This document shows, piece after piece, positions 3,400 to 45,905 of a DNA stretch of 64,000 nt. Position numbers and translations under genes: made by a program. The notes under the pieces are model-generated. The model did not search any database. It was not told the DNA's origin and saw only the letters and a program-made list of their open reading frames with translations. Origin of the DNA: Escherichia coli (GTDB lineage: Bacteria; Pseudomonadota; Gammaproteobacteria; Enterobacterales; Enterobacteriaceae); the NCBI RefSeq assembly GCF_013122565.1, contig NZ_CP053258.1; one strand, given 5' to 3'. The first letter of the stretch is position 1. Each line of letters begins with the position of its first letter.

Positions 3400-5061
3400 T
3401 TATTCTACGTTTTCGGCGACGGGAGTTGTTGAGGTTAAGGGTGAAGTCAATGCCGCCAGTGAGCCGCCTGAAACGCCAATTTCATTGAGCAAGGAGTCAA
3501 TCAGCGGTGCCTGTGTGCGGTAAGAGAGAGCGGCTGATAATGCTTGTTCCGCCAGGTTTCCGCCCCCCACATTACCCGTGTTTGCATCACCCGCAGCGCT
3601 GCCACGATTCAGACCATCGACCTGAATAATCTTGATACCGTCAATAGATTTCATCGGCTCAACGGATTTTTCTATTACCGCAGGTAGCGCCTGCAACAAG
3701 GCCAGTTTGAATTTAAGGCTGGTTTGTTCATCAGAAAGTACGTTGATAGCATCGTTCAGCGCACGTTGTGCTTCTGCTTCCGCCAGACCCTTTTTACGTG
3801 TAGCTTCGGCTAACTCAACGATAGCCGCCGCCTGCATCTCTGCGGCTTCTTTTTCTGCTTTCGCCCGCACGGTCAGTTCAACCGCTTTGGTTTCTGCATC
3901 CTGCGCGGCAGCGATTAGGGCAACTTGTTTAGCACGATCGGCTTCGGCAGTCTGGCGAGTGGTTTCTACGTTTTGTTGGGCGCTTACCGCTTCTGCAAGT
4001 GCGAGATTAGCACGCGCTTCTGCCTGGGACTGTTGTTCCGATTTGGCGGCAATAGCGATCGATTTCGTCTGGTTAGCGATTTCGGTGACCTGCTGCTGTT
4101 CGATCTCTTTAATGCGAACTTCACGTTCAGCTTCAACCTTTCTTGAGCGGACGGCCTGTTCGCGGTCGATTTCTGTTTCCTGAATCTGTCGTTCAGCCAG
4201 AATTCGTGTCTGCTCTGCTTCACGACGACGTTCAGCTTCAAAAGCCGCAATACGTGCATTCTGTTCGGCAGTACGGGTTTTAACCTGCTGCTCCTGCTCA
4301 AGCGTCATAAACGCTTCTTGCTGTTCAATCTCCAGCTTGCGCGATAGCGCATCGCGATTTTTTTCACGCACCGCAACTTCTACATCCTGTTCAACTTCGT
4401 TACGTTCGCGGCGACGGCGCTCTGTTTCCTGAGTCAGTTTGGTTAAACCTTCGGCGTCAAAGGCATTGTTCGGATTGAAATGTTCTTTCGAGGTCTGGTT
4501 AAAGTTGGTAAGTGAAACGCTCTCCAGTTCCAGACCGTTTTTCGACAGGTCTTCTGCCACTGTATTTTGCACCCCCTGCACGAAGTTCTCGCGGGTATCC
4601 TGTAACTCATGCATGGTCATTTGCGCAGCTGTTGCACGGAGGGCATCGACAAATTTATCTTCAACCAACATACGTAAGTCTTCAGGCGACAGGGTGCGTT
4701 GCCCCAGCGTCTGGGCAGCGGTGGCAATCCCTTCTACTGAAGGTTTTACCCGCACAAAGAAAGCGACTACTACATCGACGCGCATACGATCTTTCGTAAT
4801 CAGGCTATCAATAGTTGAGCGGCTGACTTCCAGCTTCAGAGTATTCATATTGATGGGGATTATTTCATGAAAGATCGGCATCACGATTGCGCCACCGCTC
4901 ATTACCACTTTTTGCCCCCCTAAGCCGGTACGGACAAATGCTTGCTCTGCCGAAGCGCGACGATAGAGCCTGGCGAAAATAATTCCAATAATAAACAGAA
5001 TGCATACGGCAATAATCGCGGTAAACATCCAGGAGGGCACAGAATTAGCAATATCATCCAT
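3400..5061 (-). CDS. yqiK: Flotillin-like SPFH/band-7 membrane protein
   Basis: 553-aa ORF; N-terminal transmembrane segment, SPFH domain, long Ala/Glu/Gln-rich coiled-coil region. Confidence 0.9.
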   Translation of the reverse strand: MDDIANSVPSWMFTAIIAVCILFIIGIIFARLYRRASAEQAFVRTGLGGQKVVMSGGAIVMPIFHEIIPINMNTLKLEVSRSTIDSLITKDRMRVDVVVAFFVRVKPSVEGIATAAQTLGQRTLSPEDLRMLVEDKFVDALRATAAQMTMHELQDTRENFVQGVQNTVAEDLSKNGLELESVSLTNFNQTSKEHFNPNNAFDAEGLTKLTQETERRRRERNEVEQDVEVAVREKNRDALSRKLEIEQQEAFMTLEQEQQVKTRTAEQNARIAAFEAERRREAEQTRILAERQIQETEIDREQAVRSRKVEAEREVRIKEIEQQQVTEIANQTKSIAIAAKSEQQSQAEARANLALAEAVSAQQNVETTRQTAEADRAKQVALIAAAQDAETKAVELTVRAKAEKEAAEMQAAAIVELAEATRKKGLAEAEAQRALNDAINVLSDEQTSLKFKLALLQALPAVIEKSVEPMKSIDGIKIIQVDGLNRGSAAGDANTGNVGGGNLAEQALSAALSYRTQAPLIDSLLNEIGVSGGSLAALTSPLTSTTPVAENVE

Positions 5062-37849: not shown

Positions 37850-39274
37850 ATGGATGGCATGGGATGGATGATTATTTTGGTACTTCCCTTTCTTTGGATG
37901 GGGTATGGACTGGCGTTGTTAATCATAACGGGGTGCGCTTTTGAATCTAAGGGGATTCGTCGCGTTCTGCTATGGGGTGTTGCGCCTCAGTTTATTATTC
38001 TTTGTATTGCGACCTTATTGCTTTACTGGACTAACTCTCGGTTAATTTATGTTTTTGTCTTTTTTCAGCCAGTTTTATGTATCACCACGGCAATTTTTTT
38101 ATTTGCTGGTAAAAAAACACAATATTCCAGATTGCTGTTTACTCTGTCTCATGTGATTTTTCTCGCTGGCGTTTTATATCAGGGGCATAGGGAAAATCTG
38201 CAATACATAATTAATAACGACTGGAAGGAATATAAAATAACGCGTTTATTTGAGCAAGTGCAGGACAATGGGGCGCATGCGCTGAATAACGATGTAACTT
38301 GTTCAGAATTAATGCAACTACTCACACTGGCAGCGGAACGTAATGACGTCAAAGAAGAGACGTTACGTACTCTTATTGCAAAGAAAGTATCGCCATTTCT
38401 GACAATGTCAGATAACTGTACGGGTGAGAATTCAGTAGAGACTTATTCTGTATATACTACGCCTTTTATGGCAGCTATTCAAAATCATAATATACATTCT
38501 GTCCGTTTTTTTAGTCAATTGCTTATGGGAAACTCATCAAAAGCAAAAAATAATCGTGACATTGTGCGCCGGGCAAACCCATTGATCGAAGTGTATAAAT
38601 ATAGTCATGGTTCTAAAAAACAACGTAAGTCAGGGTTAGAAATAAGTAAGCAATTAATGGCCATTATGCCAGAGCTATTAACAGATGCCGTCTGGCGTGC
38701 CGTGCTCAATGTATATGATGCCGATGCAGCACGATGGTTCTGGCGTAAGCAACCACCAGAAAATCGGTTGTATCGCTTAAAGGCTATGGCATTAATACCA
38801 CAAACGGATGCGCTATTGGCGGAGATTCGACAAACTCCAGAGGTACTGAATATCTCGTCTGAGGGAGACCTGAATGAAGAGGAGTTTCTCCATTTCTTAA
38901 TTTATGGAGGAGATACCGCTGTAATACATGCACTGGTTGAAAAAGGAATAGTTAACTGGCAGCACCTTATGAACATTGAGGGGTTTGATAAGGACCCCTT
39001 AATTTGGGCTATTTCAAAACTGGGAGAAAATGACAATGACCGGGAGGTTTTGACATTAATTATTCATGATATTAATGCGCAAAATGCACTGCCGGAGGAT
39101 CGCATAGCCAAATATTTAACGCGGACGGGATCAATGGGCGAGATTTTTTTAAAGGCGGGCGTACATTGTGATAAGTTATATGCGGCAATTGAGTCCGACA
39201 AAAAGCGAAATAATGGTATGTATAGTCAAAACGCCAGGGAAGAAGTGGATCGAGTATGTACGCCCGCAAAATAG
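37850..39274 (+). CDS. Hypothetical membrane protein, paralog A: about four N-terminal transmembrane helices and a helical (possibly ankyrin-like) C-terminal domain
   Basis: 474-aa ORF with AGGA ribosome-binding site; AT-rich codon usage; clear paralogy to the next ORF; not part of the K-12 gene order I recall. Confidence 0.6.
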   Translation: MDGMGWMIILVLPFLWMGYGLALLIITGCAFESKGIRRVLLWGVAPQFIILCIATLLLYWTNSRLIYVFVFFQPVLCITTAIFLFAGKKTQYSRLLFTLSHVIFLAGVLYQGHRENLQYIINNDWKEYKITRLFEQVQDNGAHALNNDVTCSELMQLLTLAAERNDVKEETLRTLIAKKVSPFLTMSDNCTGENSVETYSVYTTPFMAAIQNHNIHSVRFFSQLLMGNSSKAKNNRDIVRRANPLIEVYKYSHGSKKQRKSGLEISKQLMAIMPELLTDAVWRAVLNVYDADAARWFWRKQPPENRLYRLKAMALIPQTDALLAEIRQTPEVLNISSEGDLNEEEFLHFLIYGGDTAVIHALVEKGIVNWQHLMNIEGFDKDPLIWAISKLGENDNDREVLTLIIHDINAQNALPEDRIAKYLTRTGSMGEIFLKAGVHCDKLYAAIESDKKRNNGMYSQNAREEVDRVCTPAK

Positions 39275-39319: not shown

Positions 39320-40729
39320 ATGCGTAATGATGAATTTTTTCACCATTTTACTTTGACACTGTTTATGTTGGGTGGCTATCTACTGACTCTGTTCATCGTT
39401 ATCGTCCTTTCCTTTTTTAGCCCATTATGCCGAAAAATGGTCTTCCATGGCGCATTGCCGCAATTGATGATGGCAATAACGGTGTCGCTCGGTTTATATT
39501 ATCTGGAACGATACTCTTTTGCGGTATGGGCCTTACTGGATTCTTTTTGGATATTATTCCCCTGCCTGTTATTGATCATAGTGATAAATAAATGGTTAAA
39601 GCGTTCCCTTGTATGGATGAGTGCTTGTCATATTATGTGCTTGCTGTTGTTACTCTGGCAGGTGCAGCCCACGTTATTTAAAATCAGCTTTTATCACCAA
39701 CAATTAAGTCACCTGGCTCAGGCAGAGCAGGAAAATTTCCGCACACTGGATGCGATTCACGATACGCAACGTCTGGAAGCGATGTTACTGGTAGCGTTGA
39801 AATCCCCGGAAAATCAAACCTCTGAAAATGCCTTTCGCTATCTGTCAGGGCGAATCTCACCATTTGCTATACCTTCCATTGGCGATGAACAGTATTCTAC
39901 CCGCACTTTTTTTACGATTGCGTTGGAACATTACAACGCCCGCGCCATCCGCGCGTTTAGCCGCTTTCTGCAAGGAAATTCCTCAAAAGCGCAGGAATAT
40001 CGTGCGATTGTTCATCAAAAAAATCCACTGCAGCAGATGTACCGGGGAATAAGTTTGCCAATTCGTTTTAGTGAAGAAGAGATCGCCCGTCACATTATTG
40101 CCGCTCGCGAGATAAGCCTCACCTTACTGCCCCTGATGCCAGAATTATTAAACGAAGAGGCGTATGCAAATGTCATTGATGCTTATGACAGCGCAACGCT
40201 GAAGGCTTTTTGGCAGTTCCAGCTGCCGCCTACGCCGGTTTTGCGCCTGGAAGCGATGTCGGTAATTCCCATGACAGCGGCACTGGTTCAACAGGTGAGA
40301 GAGTCACCAAAACGGCTTGAACTGGAAGATAAAAGTGGCAGGACAGTACTAACTTACATCGTGCGCTTTGGAAATATTGCCGCAGTACAGGCACTGATTG
40401 ACGCTAATCTGATCGACTGGCAACGGCTTCGCCAATCGACAGAAAGGTCAACACCATTATTACTGGCGACCTGGCGACAAAAATACGACGATGATCATGT
40501 AATCTTCCCATTGATTTTAAAGGACATGCTGGCAAAAAATGCGCCACCCTCAGCAGAGGAAATAATGAACTGCCTTAAGGATGGTATGACCGCAGATGAT
40601 TTTTTCTCTGCCGGAATGAGCAACACGCAATTCTGTTCTGCGATTGAACAAAGCCTCCAGGCGAAAACGTCAGTATTACCGGCGAATCGATTACGCCATC
40701 TGCAATCCTCGCTGTGTGCAAAGCTGTAA
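39320..40729 (+). CDS. Hypothetical membrane protein, paralog B, same architecture as paralog A
   Basis: 469-aa ORF; shared blocks with paralog A, e.g. FSRFLQGNSSKAQEYRAIV vs FFSQLLMGNSSKAKNNRDIV and RLEAMSVIPMTAAL vs RLKAMALIPQTDAL. Confidence 0.6.
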   Translation: MRNDEFFHHFTLTLFMLGGYLLTLFIVIVLSFFSPLCRKMVFHGALPQLMMAITVSLGLYYLERYSFAVWALLDSFWILFPCLLLIIVINKWLKRSLVWMSACHIMCLLLLLWQVQPTLFKISFYHQQLSHLAQAEQENFRTLDAIHDTQRLEAMLLVALKSPENQTSENAFRYLSGRISPFAIPSIGDEQYSTRTFFTIALEHYNARAIRAFSRFLQGNSSKAQEYRAIVHQKNPLQQMYRGISLPIRFSEEEIARHIIAAREISLTLLPLMPELLNEEAYANVIDAYDSATLKAFWQFQLPPTPVLRLEAMSVIPMTAALVQQVRESPKRLELEDKSGRTVLTYIVRFGNIAAVQALIDANLIDWQRLRQSTERSTPLLLATWRQKYDDDHVIFPLILKDMLAKNAPPSAEEIMNCLKDGMTADDFFSAGMSNTQFCSAIEQSLQAKTSVLPANRLRHLQSSLCAKL

Positions 40730-40844: not shown

Positions 40845-43064
40845 ATGAGCTCTATCTCCCTGATCCAACCGGATCGCGACCTGTTCTCCTGGCCGCAGTA
40901 CTGGGCCGCCTGTTTTGGACCGGCACCGTTTTTGCCGATGTCTCGTGAAGAGATGGATCAACTTGGCTGGGATAGCTGCGACATCATTTTGGTTACTGGC
41001 GACGCGTATGTCGATCACCCAAGCTTCGGGATGGCGATTTGCGGTCGTATGCTGGAAGCGCAGGGCTTTCGCGTCGGGATCATCGCCCAGCCGGACTGGA
41101 GCAGCAAAGACGACTTTATGCGTCTGGGTAAACCGAATCTGTTTTTCGGCGTTACTGCTGGCAACATGGATTCGATGATCAACCGCTATACCGCCGATCG
41201 CCGTTTACGTCATGACGATGCCTACACGCCGGATAACGTCGCGGGTAAGCGACCGGATCGCGCCACACTGGTTTATACCCAGCGTTGTAAAGAGGCGTGG
41301 AAAGATGTGCCGGTGATCCTCGGCGGTATTGAGGCTAGTCTGCGCCGTACCGCGCATTATGATTACTGGTCCGATACCGTGCGCCGTTCCGTGCTGGTGG
41401 ATTCCAAAGCCGACATGCTGATGTTCGGTAACGGTGAGCGTCCGTTGGTGGAGGTGGCGCACCGTCTGGCGATGGGCGAGCCGATTAGTGAAATCCGCGA
41501 TGTGCGTAATACTGCGATTATCGTAAAAGAGGCGTTGCCAGGCTGGAGCGGTGTGGATTCCACCCGTCTCGATACCCCAGGGAAAATCGACCCGATCCCG
41601 CATCCGTATGGCGAAGATCTGCCGTGCGCGGATAACAAACCTGTTGCGCCGAAAAAGCAGGAAGCGAAAGCCGTAACCGTGCAGCCGCCGCGCCCGAAAC
41701 CGTGGGAAAAAACCTACGTATTGCTGCCTTCTTTCGAGAAAGTGAAGGGCGATAAAGTGCTGTACGCCCATGCTTCGCGCATTCTGCACCACGAAACCAA
41801 CCCTGGCTGCGCCCGCGCATTGATGCAAAAACACGGCGACCGCTATGTGTGGATCAACCCGCCTGCTATCCCGCTTTCTACCGAAGAGATGGACAGCGTT
41901 TTTGCGCTGCCGTACAAGCGCGTGCCGCATCCGGCCTATGGCAATGCCCGTATTCCGGCTTACGAAATGATCCGTTTCTCGGTCAACATTATGCGCGGCT
42001 GCTTTGGCGGCTGCTCTTTCTGTTCTATCACTGAGCACGAAGGGCGCATTATTCAGAGCCGTTCGGAAGATTCGATCATTAATGAGATTGAAGCGATCCG
42101 CGACACCGTTCCAGGTTTTACGGGCGTAATTTCCGATCTCGGTGGGCCAACTGCCAACATGTATATGTTGCGCTGCAAATCGCCACGCGCTGAGCAAACC
42201 TGCCGCCGTTTGTCCTGCGTTTACCCGGATATTTGTCCGCATATGGACACGAACCACGAACCAACGATCAACCTCTATCGCCGTGCGCGTGATCTGAAAG
42301 GCATTAAAAAGATCCTGATTGCCTCTGGTGTGCGTTATGACATCGCCGTAGAAGATCCGCGCTATATCAAAGAACTGGCGACCCATCACGTCGGCGGTTA
42401 TCTGAAGATTGCCCCGGAACATACCGAAGAAGGGCCGTTATCGAAGATGATGAAGCCGGGCATGGGCAGCTATGACCGCTTTAAAGAGCTGTTCGATACC
42501 TACTCGAAACAGGCAGGTAAAGAGCAGTATCTGATCCCCTATTTCATCTCCGCGCACCCGGGTACGCGTGATGAAGATATGGTGAATCTGGCGCTGTGGC
42601 TGAAAAAGCATCGTTTCCGTCTCGACCAGGTACAGAACTTCTACCCATCGCCGCTGGCTAACTCGACCACCATGTATTACACCGGGAAAAACCCGCTGGC
42701 GAAGATTGGTTATAAGAGTGAAGACGTCTTCGTACCGAAGGGCGACAAGCAGCGTCGTTTGCATAAAGCGTTGTTGCGTTACCACGATCCGGCAAACTGG
42801 CCGTTAATCCGCCAGGCGCTGGAAGCGATGGGCAAAAAGCATCTGATTGGCAGCCGTCGCGATTGCTTAGTGCCTGCGCCAACCATTGAAGAGATGCGTG
42901 AAGCTCGTCGCCAGAACCGCAATACCCGTCCGGCGTTGACGAAACATACGCCGATGGCGACCCAGCGTCAGACGCCTGCTACGGCAAAAAAAGCGTCGTC
43001 TACGCAATCTCGTCCGGTGAATGCTGGTGCGAAGAAACGCCCTAAAGCGGCGGTTGGACGTTAA
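40845..43064 (+). CDS. ygiQ: Radical-SAM protein YgiQ (UPF0313)
   Basis: 739-aa ORF; radical-SAM cysteine motif CFGGCSFC; Lys/Arg-rich C-terminal tail. Confidence 0.9.
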
Positions 43065-43134
43065 ATTCGCTGTTCCCGGTAGCAGAATTGCTACCGGGGA
43101 TATTACTTCAGAATCTATCTCATTAGGCATTTAT

Positions 43135-43491
43135 TTATATGCCGAAATGTATCATGTGTTTATTTTCTCTGATAGCTTTTTGTATTACTTCTGATAAAGA
43201 AAGAAGTAAAGGATCGTGCTGGAATTTTGTATCCGATACAACAATATGAAGAAACTGATTTAATGAATCTGGTGGGATAATGGTGACTCCGTAGCGAGCA
43301 AGCGCATAACCTGGACGATTTAAACTATGATAGAAGGTTTTTATTGTCTGAAGTTGTTCCCACCATTCATCAATATAAATGTCATCATCAATATAAACGC
43401 AATTATATTTTTCAGGTTCATAGTGACCATAATCTTTATCAGTATCAATTTCATCAATAATACCAAATTCGGTTTTAATCATAATGACCAT
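43135..43491 (-). CDS. Small acidic hypothetical protein (118 aa)
   Basis: ORF with AT-rich composition downstream of the yqhG-like paralog on the same strand; no family recognised. Confidence 0.4.
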   Translation of the reverse strand: MVIMIKTEFGIIDEIDTDKDYGHYEPEKYNCVYIDDDIYIDEWWEQLQTIKTFYHSLNRPGYALARYGVTIIPPDSLNQFLHIVVSDTKFQHDPLLLSLSEVIQKAIRENKHMIHFGI

Positions 43492-43673
43492 GCTTTTTAA
43501 TTGTTATGCAGAAAAATGCCAGGAAAATGATTTAAATTGAATTTTCTGGGGTGATTTGTAATCTTGCTTGTCATATAGATGAGCCATCCAACGAGGTTGT
43601 GCAACATTTAATGAGGGAGACTGGACCAGAACAAGGCTGGGGATTAATATAGAAATGATTAACAATAGTGGCT

Positions 43674-44597
43674 TCATTTTGTCGTTGTTTCCATATTATT
43701 TTTAGCAGATTCCGCCTGTAATTTTTTGATTTCTTGTTCTCTGTGGCGTGCAAACTCTTTACGGGTCGTGACGCGTTCATACAAAGTAATATCGGTAATC
43801 CCCCCACTCCGCATGCCCAAATGACCTCGTATATCCATATCAAATGTTCCAGCTATCCGGACATAATCGCCATTTAGCTGACGAGCACGAGTTAAGGTCA
43901 CGACTGGGTTTGGGAAATCAATATCCAACCACACGCTATCACTTTGAACAAAATTTTCCCAGGATTCTTTATTTAAATATAAGGCGTTGCCTTCAAACTC
44001 AATATTGCCGACACCTTCGACAACCACCTTTTGCAAATGGTATTTTTCTGGCTGCGCAAGTAGTGCCGTCATTGATATCGAATGAGAAAAATGATCGCTT
44101 GAGGGTTCATTAATTACAGCTCTGCGTTTCATTCGCGTATCTTCACGTATTTCTGCCCGTAGACTGTTAGGCATTTCATTACCATCATCGATGTCTTCTA
44201 TTAGCCAGCGATGATTATCATTTTCACGAACCAGCATCAGCCCCAGTAACCGGTGGACATTGGTGCGATTTTGTTTGATAACCAACTGCAACAGTACATG
44301 CGTTCGGCCGCCATTTAGGTGTGTGCTTTGGATTATTTCTGCAGAAACGAAAGTATCATCAACACAGCGACACAAAAGATTATTATTCAGCCAGGGTGTC
44401 ATTTTGCCAGGAGTAGCGCTCATATTACTTCGCAAATCGAGACTGAATTCATCGGTTATTGGTATATCGCCATTACTGGTCAATGGTTGGTACAAACGTT
44501 CTATCGCTTCATTAATCGATTCTTTGCACAACACGTTTCCGCTGAAGCCACAGAACAGCAGAATAAAAAAACAGGTGTGCCAGCGTCGCATAATCAT
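43674..44597 (-). CDS. Secreted YqhG-like (DUF3828-like) protein, second paralog
   Basis: 307-aa ORF with signal peptide; shares motifs with the dkgA-proximal yqhG ORF (NHRWLIEDI vs NGRWVIDDI). Confidence 0.6.
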   Translation of the reverse strand: MIMRRWHTCFFILLFCGFSGNVLCKESINEAIERLYQPLTSNGDIPITDEFSLDLRSNMSATPGKMTPWLNNNLLCRCVDDTFVSAEIIQSTHLNGGRTHVLLQLVIKQNRTNVHRLLGLMLVRENDNHRWLIEDIDDGNEMPNSLRAEIREDTRMKRRAVINEPSSDHFSHSISMTALLAQPEKYHLQKVVVEGVGNIEFEGNALYLNKESWENFVQSDSVWLDIDFPNPVVTLTRARQLNGDYVRIAGTFDMDIRGHLGMRSGGITDITLYERVTTRKEFARHREQEIKKLQAESAKNNMETTTK

Positions 44598-44670
44598 GCC
44601 CTTATGTTTGGCTTTTTCTTAGCAAACAGCCTCTAACCCGGCAACTGACATGCTGCCGGGGATTTTTTTA

Positions 44671-44928
44671 TCATTCTGCGTACATACGCATGCAGCGCAG
44701 GCAATCAAAATAGTCCTGTGCATCAAGACGCGTATTGGCTCTGTTAGCTTCGGATTTGGCAGCATAGATTTGTGGGCGTAGTGCTTTCATATCCTGCTCA
44801 AGCCGGGCGATTTTGGCATTTAATGTTTGTACATTGCTCGCCAGTTGATTGACCTTTTGCTCATTGACGCAGCCACTGAGCAAGCAGGTTGCCAGAACAA
44901 CAGCTCCCACGGTGAAAATCGTTTTCAT
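44671..44928 (-). CDS. yqhH: Lpp-like small lipoprotein YqhH
   Basis: 85-aa ORF; lipobox LLSGC; coiled-coil; C-terminal Cys-rich tail. Confidence 0.85.
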
Positions 44929-44978: not shown

Positions 44979-45905
44979 TCATTGCTTTAATCTGGCGGCG
45001 GTTTTCGCCTCAATCTGCTTAAGTAGGCTGCCGCTGTTCGGGCGGATAAAATCAGCGATTTCCCACTTACCTTCGCGCCGCTGTAAAACCAGCTCTTGCT
45101 CTTCGTTGTTGCCATTGGTCAGCGTAAAACGAACATGAATGCGGGCGGAATCGGCGGTTTTCTCCAGGACTCGAATTTCATCAACGCGTGAAAATAGCGA
45201 CTCTTCGCCAAAACAGATCGGATTGTCGTAAATAAATTGCCGTTCTATTTGCATATCTTCATCGGGATTGTTGGCCGTCTTGAAGGTGGTTTTATAGAAG
45301 GCATTGACCGCCTGGCGGTAAGAGTCGGAAACCACCCACGTCCACGGCCAGCTATAATCAGCAATATGTTCAAAGAGTTCAGCAACAAAGGATTCTGGCT
45401 GTTCTTTTTGCAACGAAGCTAAAGCGGCCAGCGTTTTTTCATTCTCGCTATTAACGGCATGCCAGATACTGCCATGATTGCTGACAATATCATCAATGAC
45501 CCAACGACCATTTTCCGCCACCATTTTCAGTGTCTGTGTGGTCTTTTCTTTATCATCTTTAAAGATACGAAAGCGCACAACGGCATCGGCATGATCGACG
45601 TCAGTTTGGGTTATCGCTACGCTTTCTAACACCAGCTCGCCAAAATCCTGACAATCACAAACCGGATCATAATCCAGCCAGCCAATATTGCCCGGTAGTG
45701 TAAGATTGTCGTTCAGGGTAAGCGCCTGTTGAATACGCGCTGAAGTTATCGCCCGCTCTCCGGTTTCACCGAAATAAGGCGTACTGGCATCTGATTTATA
45801 GTTCTGATAAATCTGCCGGACTGTTTGTTCTACGGTCTGTGAAGGAGGCTGCGCGTGTACGGTAAAACTTGCCAGGGCTGCTAAAAACAGAAGTATTATT
45901 TTCAT
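44979..45905 (-). CDS. yqhG: Secreted DUF3828-family protein YqhG
   Basis: 308-aa ORF with signal peptide MKIILLFLAALASFTVHA; adjacent to dkgA. Confidence 0.75.
   Translation of the reverse strand: MKIILLFLAALASFTVHAQPPSQTVEQTVRQIYQNYKSDASTPYFGETGERAITSARIQQALTLNDNLTLPGNIGWLDYDPVCDCQDFGELVLESVAITQTDVDHADAVVRFRIFKDDKEKTTQTLKMVAENGRWVIDDIVSNHGSIWHAVNSENEKTLAALASLQKEQPESFVAELFEHIADYSWPWTWVVSDSYRQAVNAFYKTTFKTANNPDEDMQIERQFIYDNPICFGEESLFSRVDEIRVLEKTADSARIHVRFTLTNGNNEEQELVLQRREGKWEIADFIRPNSGSLLKQIEAKTAARLKQ

Follow-up and report, generated by a model that had tools for sequence, protein, structure and literature searches.

What are the two genes that some Escherichia coli strains carry between yqhH and ygiQ, and do they belong together? 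The question is raised by a 64,000-nucleotide stretch of E. coli contig NZ_CP053258.1 (assembly GCF_013122565.1; "the window" below is this whole stretch), in which a sequence-only reading had seen a second, diverged yqhG-like gene and, downstream of it, a small acidic gene, and had speculated that they encode a secreted effector and its cognate binding protein. We call the two open reading frames (ORFs) ORF307 and ORF115. In the account that we prefer, and to which we give roughly an even chance (about 0.5), they make up a strain-variable module in a hotspot of gene content and are two functional, evolutionarily independent genes, ORF307 encoding a putative periplasmic binding protein and ORF115 a putative cytoplasmic binding protein that works alone.

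The minus-strand gene order in the window is yqhD, dkgA, yqhG, yqhH, a 307-codon ORF, a 57-codon ORF and a 118-codon ORF, the last of which faces the 3' end of ygiQ (plus strand, 40845-43064). In K-12 MG1655, yqhG and yqhH are followed after 42 bp by ygiQ with no extra genes, as the sequence-only reading had stated, and the two longer ORFs are indeed on the minus strand at 43674-44597 and 43135-43491. The window has 1.56 kb between yqhH and ygiQ (~1.6 kb of accessory DNA), and its GC content drops to 33-34% across positions 43000-43800. A synteny comparison, proposed at the same time, identifies the segment as strain-variable: by megablast, 128 of the 5426 complete E. coli genomes (2.4%) carry it, always on the chromosome and always at the yqhH-ygiQ site, and in 121 of these it is full length and 95-97% identical. 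RefSeq labels both genes "hypothetical protein". The flanks are ordinary E. coli DNA; the DkgA protein is identical to that of K-12, at a synonymous divergence (dS) of 0.045.

Both genes are real and under purifying selection. Their true starts are probably slightly inside the longest ORFs, at MIKTEF and MRRW, because the RefSeq models, the homologues and the family alignments begin there. The ratio of nonsynonymous to synonymous divergence (dN/dS; Nei-Gojobori, as for dS, against other E. coli alleles and E. albertii) is 0.11-0.23 for the ORF115 gene and 0.13-0.28 for the ORF307 gene, which resembles the values of yqhG and yqhH. We give very little credence to the view that the segment is functionless DNA in decay, left over from a larger ancestral locus and on its way out. 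Its presence in so few genomes, a degenerate ORF in the spacer, variants with an internal deletion between 10-bp repeats and the insertion of an insertion sequence (IS1) in one carrier would all suit decay, but both ORFs are unbroken in all four full-length alleles compared (window, O158:H23, WB61 and E. albertii), the protein families are conserved across genera and phyla, and the dN/dS values, 0.11-0.28 over dS of up to 0.67-1.6, contradict decay directly, so that this explanation is largely refuted. The two genes differ in composition. The ORF115 gene has 31.9% GC overall and 22% at third codon positions (GC3), the ORF307 gene has a GC3 of 40% and the flanking core genes 48-62%; the difference between 22% and 40% points to separate origins of the two genes.

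ORF57, the 57-codon ORF between them, is probably a non-functional remnant and not a gene. It carries no RefSeq annotation and matches no family in Pfam, NCBIfam, PADLOC or PHROGs; in O158:H23 a CAA codon has become a TAA stop, WB61 has lost 10 bp close to the end of the ORF, and strain CT01 has it joined in-frame to the ORF307 N-terminal domain. We considered that it might encode a small secreted protein and rejected this, as it is interrupted, truncated or fused in other strains.

Is ORF307, as first proposed, a second yqhG? The proposal holds for the front part of the protein and fails for the rest. The n-, h- and c-regions of its signal peptide (MRRWH / TCFFILLFCGFSG / NVLC, then KE) are conserved in the family by inspection, and the signal peptides of homologues end in AAALA before DE, which suits signal peptidase I. 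Neither ORF307 nor its family alignment has a canonical lipobox. The signal peptides of ORF307 and YqhG align with each other in hhalign, and export of the ORF307 protein to the periplasm is predicted on these grounds. A formal pairwise alignment, which had been suggested as a check, does detect homology: BLASTP aligns residues 26-136 with the neighbouring YqhG at 20% identity over 124 amino acids (E 2e-5), BLASTP E values of the pairs compared run from 2e-5 to 1e-4, and hhalign of the two families gives 96% and E 3.3e-9 over 147 columns. The hhalign alignment ends at about residue 157 and is limited to the signal peptide and first domain. By this profile comparison the N-terminal domain is a homologue of YqhG's DUF3828 domain. 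Domains of the DUF3828 type are NTF2-like, occur in secreted proteins of Gram-negative bacteria and are marked by a mid-domain aspartate and, toward its C-terminus, a tryptophan with two hydrophobic residues (PMC3924330). In the ORF307 family the aspartate after C-R-C-V and the motif W131-L-I are conserved and align with the QD and W-V-I of YqhG; a C-x-C-x-D motif and a tryptophan with two hydrophobic residues after it are common to both proteins. The QDx motif has lost its glutamine in the window protein (V-D-D) and in E. albertii-type proteins (L-D-D), and is present only in more distant members of the family (QDD, QDE, QPD).

Beyond that point the two proteins differ. The C-terminal half of YqhG (b3013) is a second NTF2-like region (PMC3924330), with a weak match to the DUF4878 structure 3k7c in the Protein Data Bank (PDB). 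The corresponding part of ORF307 is a confidently modelled OB fold followed by a helix; structure comparison of the predicted domain finds the five-stranded barrel that defines the fold, and the C-terminal helix is kept across the family while its sequence varies. ORF307 and YqhG, at ~20% identity, share a locus, and their genes are adjacent and overlap in other genera. By domain ORF307 is a paralogue of YqhG, a secreted relative of it in the N-terminal domain and not along its full length; with its DUF3828-like plus OB architecture it is not the duplicate that had been supposed.

The OB domain belongs to a large family of its own. No member of a 13-protein ORF307 family set has a Pfam match in this region, DUF3299 and BOF included, and a sequence-profile search of the PDB with the family alignment returned no relevant chain. 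Its nearest known counterparts are the periplasmic OB-fold proteins DUF3299 (PA4066, PDB 4hsp), YgiW/BOF (1nnx) and a Klebsiella 'nucleic acid-binding lipoprotein' (3f1z), all at 8-17% identity; unlike these, the ORF307 module carries a conserved H/E/D/H set and has 1620 representative relatives (E<=1e-3, in a search of 1.84 billion representative proteins), nearly all of which align to ORF307 residues ~165-280 only. The relatives are of four types, none with a Pfam or NCBIfam assignment: proteins of 130-170 amino acids that bear a signal peptide, a lipobox or a membrane anchor; proteins extended by further domains at the C-terminus; Firmicutes proteins that begin with an XRE-type helix-turn-helix (HTH) and continue with a transmembrane segment (TM) and the OB module (for example the metagenomic P0076 and P0085); and single or double fusions of the module to DUF3828. 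In the HTH-TM proteins the OB module is presumably external, which by analogy implies a sensor or ligand-binding role.

What the N-terminal domain might do is suggested by its characterised relatives. The characterised DUF3828 proteins are Tai3, YbjP and YqhG; YbjP is a lipoprotein partner of TolC and YqhG is periplasmic (bioRxiv 10.1101/2025.03.19.644130). Tai3 (PDB 4HZ9) and YbjP belong to the same domain superfamily as the ORF307 N-terminal domain, are located in the periplasm and bind proteins without catalysis, and so serve as a working analogy for it. ORF307 differs from Tai3 in having no adjacent Tae3 or NlpC/P60 gene and a valine in place of the QDx glutamine, and from YbjP in lacking a lipobox and having the extra OB domain. 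By this analogy its NTF2-like domain would bind a protein or a small ligand, as in Tai3 and YbjP. The OB module may bind a ligand outside the cytoplasm as well, given that HTH-TM-OB regulators have this module as their outer part. The whole would then be a non-catalytic periplasmic binding protein that works alongside YqhG and YqhH in the cell envelope. Scans of ORF307 against Pfam, NCBIfam, PADLOC and PHROGs gave nothing beyond a weak DUF3828 match and recognised no toxin or enzyme domain.

The ORF307 family appears to be confined to Enterobacteriaceae. Relatives with 53-73% identity occur in E. albertii, Salmonella and other enterobacterial assemblies. A scan of one genome per species found only three loci, which attests rarity and is too few for statistics: Escherichia sp. 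MOD1-EC7003 (94% identity, with the same order of yqhH then ORF307), Superficieibacter electus (57%) and a Flavobacterium protein with the OB module only. The family is usually co-operonic with yqhG; the homologue lies directly upstream of yqhG in E. albertii, Superficieibacter and one further genus, and overlaps the yqhG start in two of them.

The interval between dkgA and ygiQ differs in gene content in every genus examined. In E. albertii the order is dkgA, a 298-aa ORF307 homologue, yqhG (with overlapping start), a 115-aa ORF115 homologue, an extra Lpp-like gene, yqhH and ygiQ. Another Enterobacteriaceae genus has dkgA, a divergent lipoprotein, a 309-aa homologue, yqhG (overlapping), an HIT protein, a paralogue of 386 aa that has two OB modules, a gene of Lpp-like type and ygiQ. 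The Superficieibacter electus interval is ~8 kb long (locus L028, 2973-11254) and holds a SUKH gene, an OB fragment, an HIT gene, the ORF307 homologue, two YqhG paralogues and a DUF3828 plus OB paralogue. In a further enterobacterium the interval encodes a protein made of the OB module alone, an SMI1_KNR4 (SUKH-1) protein of 421 aa (E 3.4e-5), a lipoprotein and a DUF3828 protein of one domain. A CarboxypepD_reg-type lipoprotein is also found among these intervals (L028 2973-11254, L022 5001-7880 and L009 4395-8829). Because the paralogue arrays differ from genus to genus, dkgA-ygiQ is a hypervariable hotspot across Enterobacteriaceae, filled by paralogues of a few secreted-protein modules. The divergence between E. 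coli and E. albertii is also uneven: dS is 1.6-1.8 for the ORF307 gene and yqhG (YqhG is 71% identical) and 0.37-0.49 for dkgA and yqhD, which suggests old alleles or recombinational replacement at yqhG and ORF307.

Could such a locus be an orphan immunity cluster that gathers proteins protecting against competitors' toxins? The DUF3828 proteins (YqhG, ORF307) would then neutralise periplasmic Tae3-type NlpC/P60 amidases, as Tai3 does, and cytoplasmic proteins (ORF115 here, SUKH elsewhere) would counter toxins with targets in the cytoplasm. The locus varies in gene presence, has arrays of paralogues and shuffles domains, all of which fit this idea, as do SUKH genes at the hotspot in two other Enterobacteriaceae and the deep dS relative to the flanks (0.4-0.5). 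Maf loci are toxin-immunity islands, and the gene of DMP12, whose fold ORF115 shares (see below), lies at the maf-3 locus. One YqhG allele is labelled 'YqhG/Tai3 family protein' in RefSeq. The best-characterised DUF3828 protein, Tai3, is a periplasmic immunity protein for Tae3, a type VI secretion system (T6SS) amidase (bioRxiv 10.1101/2025.03.19.644130), and DUF3828 genes are often in operons with NlpC/P60 genes (PMC3924330). We nevertheless place the idea on the unlikely side. In none of the loci examined is an effector, T6SS, contact-dependent inhibition (CDI), Rhs or Tae3/NlpC-P60 gene next to the module; the glutamine of QDx, a motif implicated in Tae3 inhibition, is valine in the window protein and leucine in the E. 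albertii protein; and the published phylogeny sets YqhG in a family apart from Tai3 (bioRxiv 10.1101/2025.03.19.644130). ORF115 is more conserved than is usual for an immunity protein (57-68% identity between E. coli and Clostridia, mean column identity 62%) and is never beside a toxin gene in the contexts examined. PADLOC found nothing, though its library covers phage defence and not interbacterial immunity. We think it rather unlikely that the dkgA-ygiQ interval is a chromosomal 'immunity depot' where orphan inhibitor genes are gathered and shuffled. Its periplasmic set could comprise Tai3-like DUF3828 paralogues, YqhG included, together with the OB module that lies outside Pfam, and its cytoplasmic set could comprise SUKH proteins and the 115-aa DMP12-fold family imported across phyla from gut Firmicutes; together they would guard the cell against toxins delivered on contact. 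If true, this would give YqhG and the DMP12-fold proteins a common functional explanation; otherwise current understanding is unchanged.

The other gene of our preferred reading is ORF115. This gene had been described as acidic, AT-rich and without an obvious family, and all three points stand: the protein has an isoelectric point (pI) of 4.9 and no match in NCBIfam, PADLOC, PHROGs or, even at E<=10, Pfam, a check that had been proposed for both proteins. With no signal peptide or hydrophobic segment it is probably cytoplasmic. It has the fold of DMP12 and YfbM. DMP12 is a protein of 118 amino acids and pI 4.39 that binds HU; its gene sits at the 3' end of maf-3 (PMC3643605). ORF115 has the same fold as DMP12 (Neisseria NMB2123; PDB 3w1o), but no detectable sequence relation to it, and the two differ in range (Firmicutes and a few Enterobacterales for ORF115, Neisseria for DMP12) and in gene context. 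YfbM (b2272, DUF1877; PDB 1ryl) is longer, at 167 amino acids, and hhalign gives only 0.2%. A barstar-like identity, suggested by the label on two relatives in the AlphaFold database (AFDB), was rejected (hhalign 0.13%).

Although no library names it, the ORF115 family is large. A single-sequence search found 47 relatives at 46-96% identity (46-68% in other phyla), and 2048 clusters came up at E<=1e-3 when a profile was used, each either without a name or "hypothetical". By Foldseek against AFDB50 and the named matches its members are in Clostridia, Bacilli and Negativicutes, with hosts including Hungatella, Clostridium, Caldicellulosiruptor, Niallia, Bacillus thuringiensis and Sporomusa; among the matches seen, the only Enterobacterales are Escherichia and Leminorella. 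Twelve residues (G7, C28, K48, R56, G65, T67, P70, P71, S73, K108, H112 and G114) are invariant. The gene stands alone in six of six contexts outside Escherichia, five of Firmicutes type and one in Leminorella: close to a spore permease and IS elements; with an ABC transporter on one side and a TetR gene on the other; on a small RepA_N plasmid next to parA; flanked by a PHP gene and a hydrolase gene; flanked by a two-component system and a GH106 gene; and, in Leminorella, after a GNAT gene. No neighbour is conserved among these six independent contexts. Composition and distribution suggest that the gene moved from Firmicutes into Escherichia, a transfer across phyla.

The likeness to DMP12 makes one ask whether ORF115 is also a DNA mimic, whose acidic surface would fill the DNA site of HU, or of some other DNA-binding or nucleoid protein, and thereby modulate it. 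Shared fold and low pI are what raise this possibility, which we judge improbable. At the sequence level nothing ties the family to DMP12: there is no Pfam match, and the family profile has no PDB match even at E 10. Acidity is not kept in the nearest relatives either; the pI is 4.4-5.2 in most members, but it is 5.5 in another E. coli allele and 6.7 in E. albertii-type proteins, the closest Escherichia relatives. Only one acidic position, D33, is nearly invariant, and the invariant polar residues are basic or neutral. Among 50,697 phage records the family does not occur, and of 72,556 plasmids just 4 carry it, each of them a large Firmicutes replicon; these counts led us to reject an anti-restriction DNA mimic of the Ocr/ArdA kind, borne by phages or plasmids.

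We come then to the pair itself, in which the 305-aa protein would be a secreted effector and the 115-aa protein its chaperone, immunity protein or binding partner. The genes are adjacent, on the same strand and without a predicted terminator between them; all 128 E. coli carriers have the 115-aa gene together with the 305-aa gene, whole or at the least its 5' half; and both families are found at the dkgA-ygiQ locus in E. albertii. Against this, each family occurs alone outside Escherichia. ORF307 relatives without a 115-aa gene are found in Salmonella, Superficieibacter and two other Enterobacteriaceae, in three of these four at the dkgA-ygiQ locus directly upstream of yqhG and in the fourth, Salmonella, elsewhere, near acnB; and no ORF307 relative is near the ORF115 gene in the six contexts outside Escherichia. 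In E. albertii yqhG lies between the two homologues. The alleles of strains CT01 and LP5-1 have lost the OB domain and kept the 115-aa gene intact. The two genes differ in GC3 and their products in expected compartment, neither protein has a recognisable toxin domain, and the 305-aa protein is not a YqhG duplicate. For these reasons nothing indicates that ORF307 and ORF115 act as a cognate pair; the speculation of the sequence-only reading is not supported and has, in our estimate, a very small chance of being right.

In CT01 (locus L017, 3000-4259) and LP5-1 (L016) a deletion between 10-bp direct repeats, AATCCCCA[AG]C, has removed the OB region, and a gene for a 210-aa protein with a CxxC...CxxC zinc-ribbon-like pattern has been gained, in CT01 upstream of the ORF115 gene. 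A 44-aa fragment of this gene, 61% identical, lies directly upstream of the E. albertii 115-aa gene (L012, 6849-6980); because of this fragment, the older neighbour of the small gene is a different gene from ORF307. Neither the window nor the Firmicutes contexts of ORF115 contain the 210-aa gene, and no family matched it.

On the reading that we favour, ORF115 would have entered Escherichia by transfer across phyla and would act alone in the cytoplasm, most likely by binding another macromolecule and not as a partner of ORF307. Several points weigh against this picture. Both families share a locus in E. coli and in E. albertii, so that a functional link within Escherichia is possible. The Pfam comparison proposed for the two proteins gave a sub-threshold match of DUF3828 (PF12883) to the 305-aa protein (E 0.025, score 15.3, residues 66-139), with no match at E<=0.001 and one at E<=0.1 among the 13 family members, and the AlphaFold2 (AF2) model of the N-terminal domain is of low confidence, at a predicted local distance difference test score (pLDDT) of 38-78. 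For the binding roles of both proteins we argue by analogy, from their folds and domain families. Residues that do not vary in the ORF115 family are, in the main, K, R, H, C, T and S of the beta-sheet, a pattern that would suit a small enzyme or a ligand site no less than a protein-binding inhibitor. The direction of transfer, from Firmicutes to Escherichia, is read from composition (32% GC) and distribution.

Table 1. Coordinates of the segment, its genes and domains, and the adjacent yqhGH genes in the window.
Feature	Position	Strand	Remarks
ORF115, 115 aa, acidic	43135..43482	-	starts MIKTEF; longest ORF 118 aa from 43491
ORF307/305, 305-aa secreted two-domain protein	43674..44591	-	starts MRRW; longest ORF 307 aa from 44597
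Predicted signal peptide of ORF307 (MRRWHTCFFILLFCGFSGNVLC, cut before KE)	44526..44591	-	read from sequence and family alignment
DUF3828-like N-terminal domain of ORF307 (NTF2-like, YqhG/Tai3/YbjP-type)	44178..44525	-	C-x-C-V-D-D and W-L-I motifs
C-terminal OB-fold domain of ORF307	43764..44090	-	consensus LIANPEKYHGK.V.V.GVGNLEFEGNALYL...LWI...NG.YV.VEG.FD...GH.G..SG.I.DITRYE
C-terminal charged helix of ORF307, residues 279-306	43677..43763	-	AF2 H279-306, pLDDT >=90
ORF57, in the 191-bp spacer	43504..43677	-	4-nt overlap (ATGA) with the ORF307 stop; resembles a signal peptide
ygiQ-side hairpin copy (CCCGGTAGCAGAATTGCTACCGGGGATATT)	43075..43104	.	right boundary; repeat D2, alignment with K-12 hairpin
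yqhH-side hairpin copy	44637..44666	.	left boundary; repeat D2, alignment with K-12 hairpin
yqhH, Lpp-like lipoprotein	44671-44928	-	resident operon upstream of the extra genes
yqhG, periplasmic, two NTF2-like domains	44979-45905	-	resident operon upstream of the extra genes

The borders of the segment are simple. In the window they hold no integrase, IS element or tRNA, only a duplicated hairpin: two diverged copies of a terminator hairpin (direct-repeat family D2; 77% identical and 1562 bp apart) flank the segment, and the single yqhH/ygiQ hairpin of K-12 aligns with both. The junction sequences of the window and K-12 differ, and the difference between them is either an insertion of the segment or its loss from K-12. 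The K-12 hairpin (about 4886-4927 of the K-12 locus, L014) has an A-run and a T-run on its flanks and is for that reason a bidirectional terminator. The yqhH-side hairpin of the window keeps a T-run for the ygiQ-sense strand only, and the ygiQ-side copy has neither run; carrier strains may therefore end their yqhGH and ygiQ transcripts differently. In particular, the yqhH-side hairpin, unlike that of K-12, has no U-run on the minus (yqhGH-sense) strand, so that transcription of yqhGH may read through into ORF307. The yqhGH operon is activated by BglJ-RcsB (PMC3950696), and the module may be expressed by read-through from that promoter. An Rfam search for structured RNAs gave no match near the gathering scores.

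Both genes are already in the databases as hypothetical proteins, and what is new is their anatomy and context: the DUF3828 plus OB architecture, two large families without a Pfam or NCBIfam model, the recognition of the hotspot and the apparent cross-phylum acquisition of the ORF115 gene. The 115-aa family of DMP12/YfbM fold has more than 2000 clusters, mostly from gut Firmicutes, and its Escherichia member is a small gene apparently taken from Firmicutes and kept under purifying selection. The ~105-aa extracytoplasmic OB module (~1600 clusters) can be a secreted protein by itself, can be joined to DUF3828 or can make up the external portion of HTH-TM regulators. In uropathogenic E. coli, YqhG has an effect on type 1 fimbriae and on virulence; its place in a hypervariable locus of its own paralogues, with a co-operonic partner family elsewhere, offers a comparative handle on its function.

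We note finally a second variable site close by. Between ftsP and ygiQ the window carries two paralogous genes for proteins of ~470 amino acids (37850-39274 and 39320-40729, both plus strand; 26% identity, E 3e-45), which match nothing in NCBIfam, PADLOC or PHROGs, the three libraries searched. Each protein has a hydrophobic N-terminal third, and the genes have 41-46% GC. In K-12 and O158:H23 ftsP and ygiQ are adjacent, and the insert is present in 13 of the 5426 complete E. coli genomes, at 97% identity in the best case.

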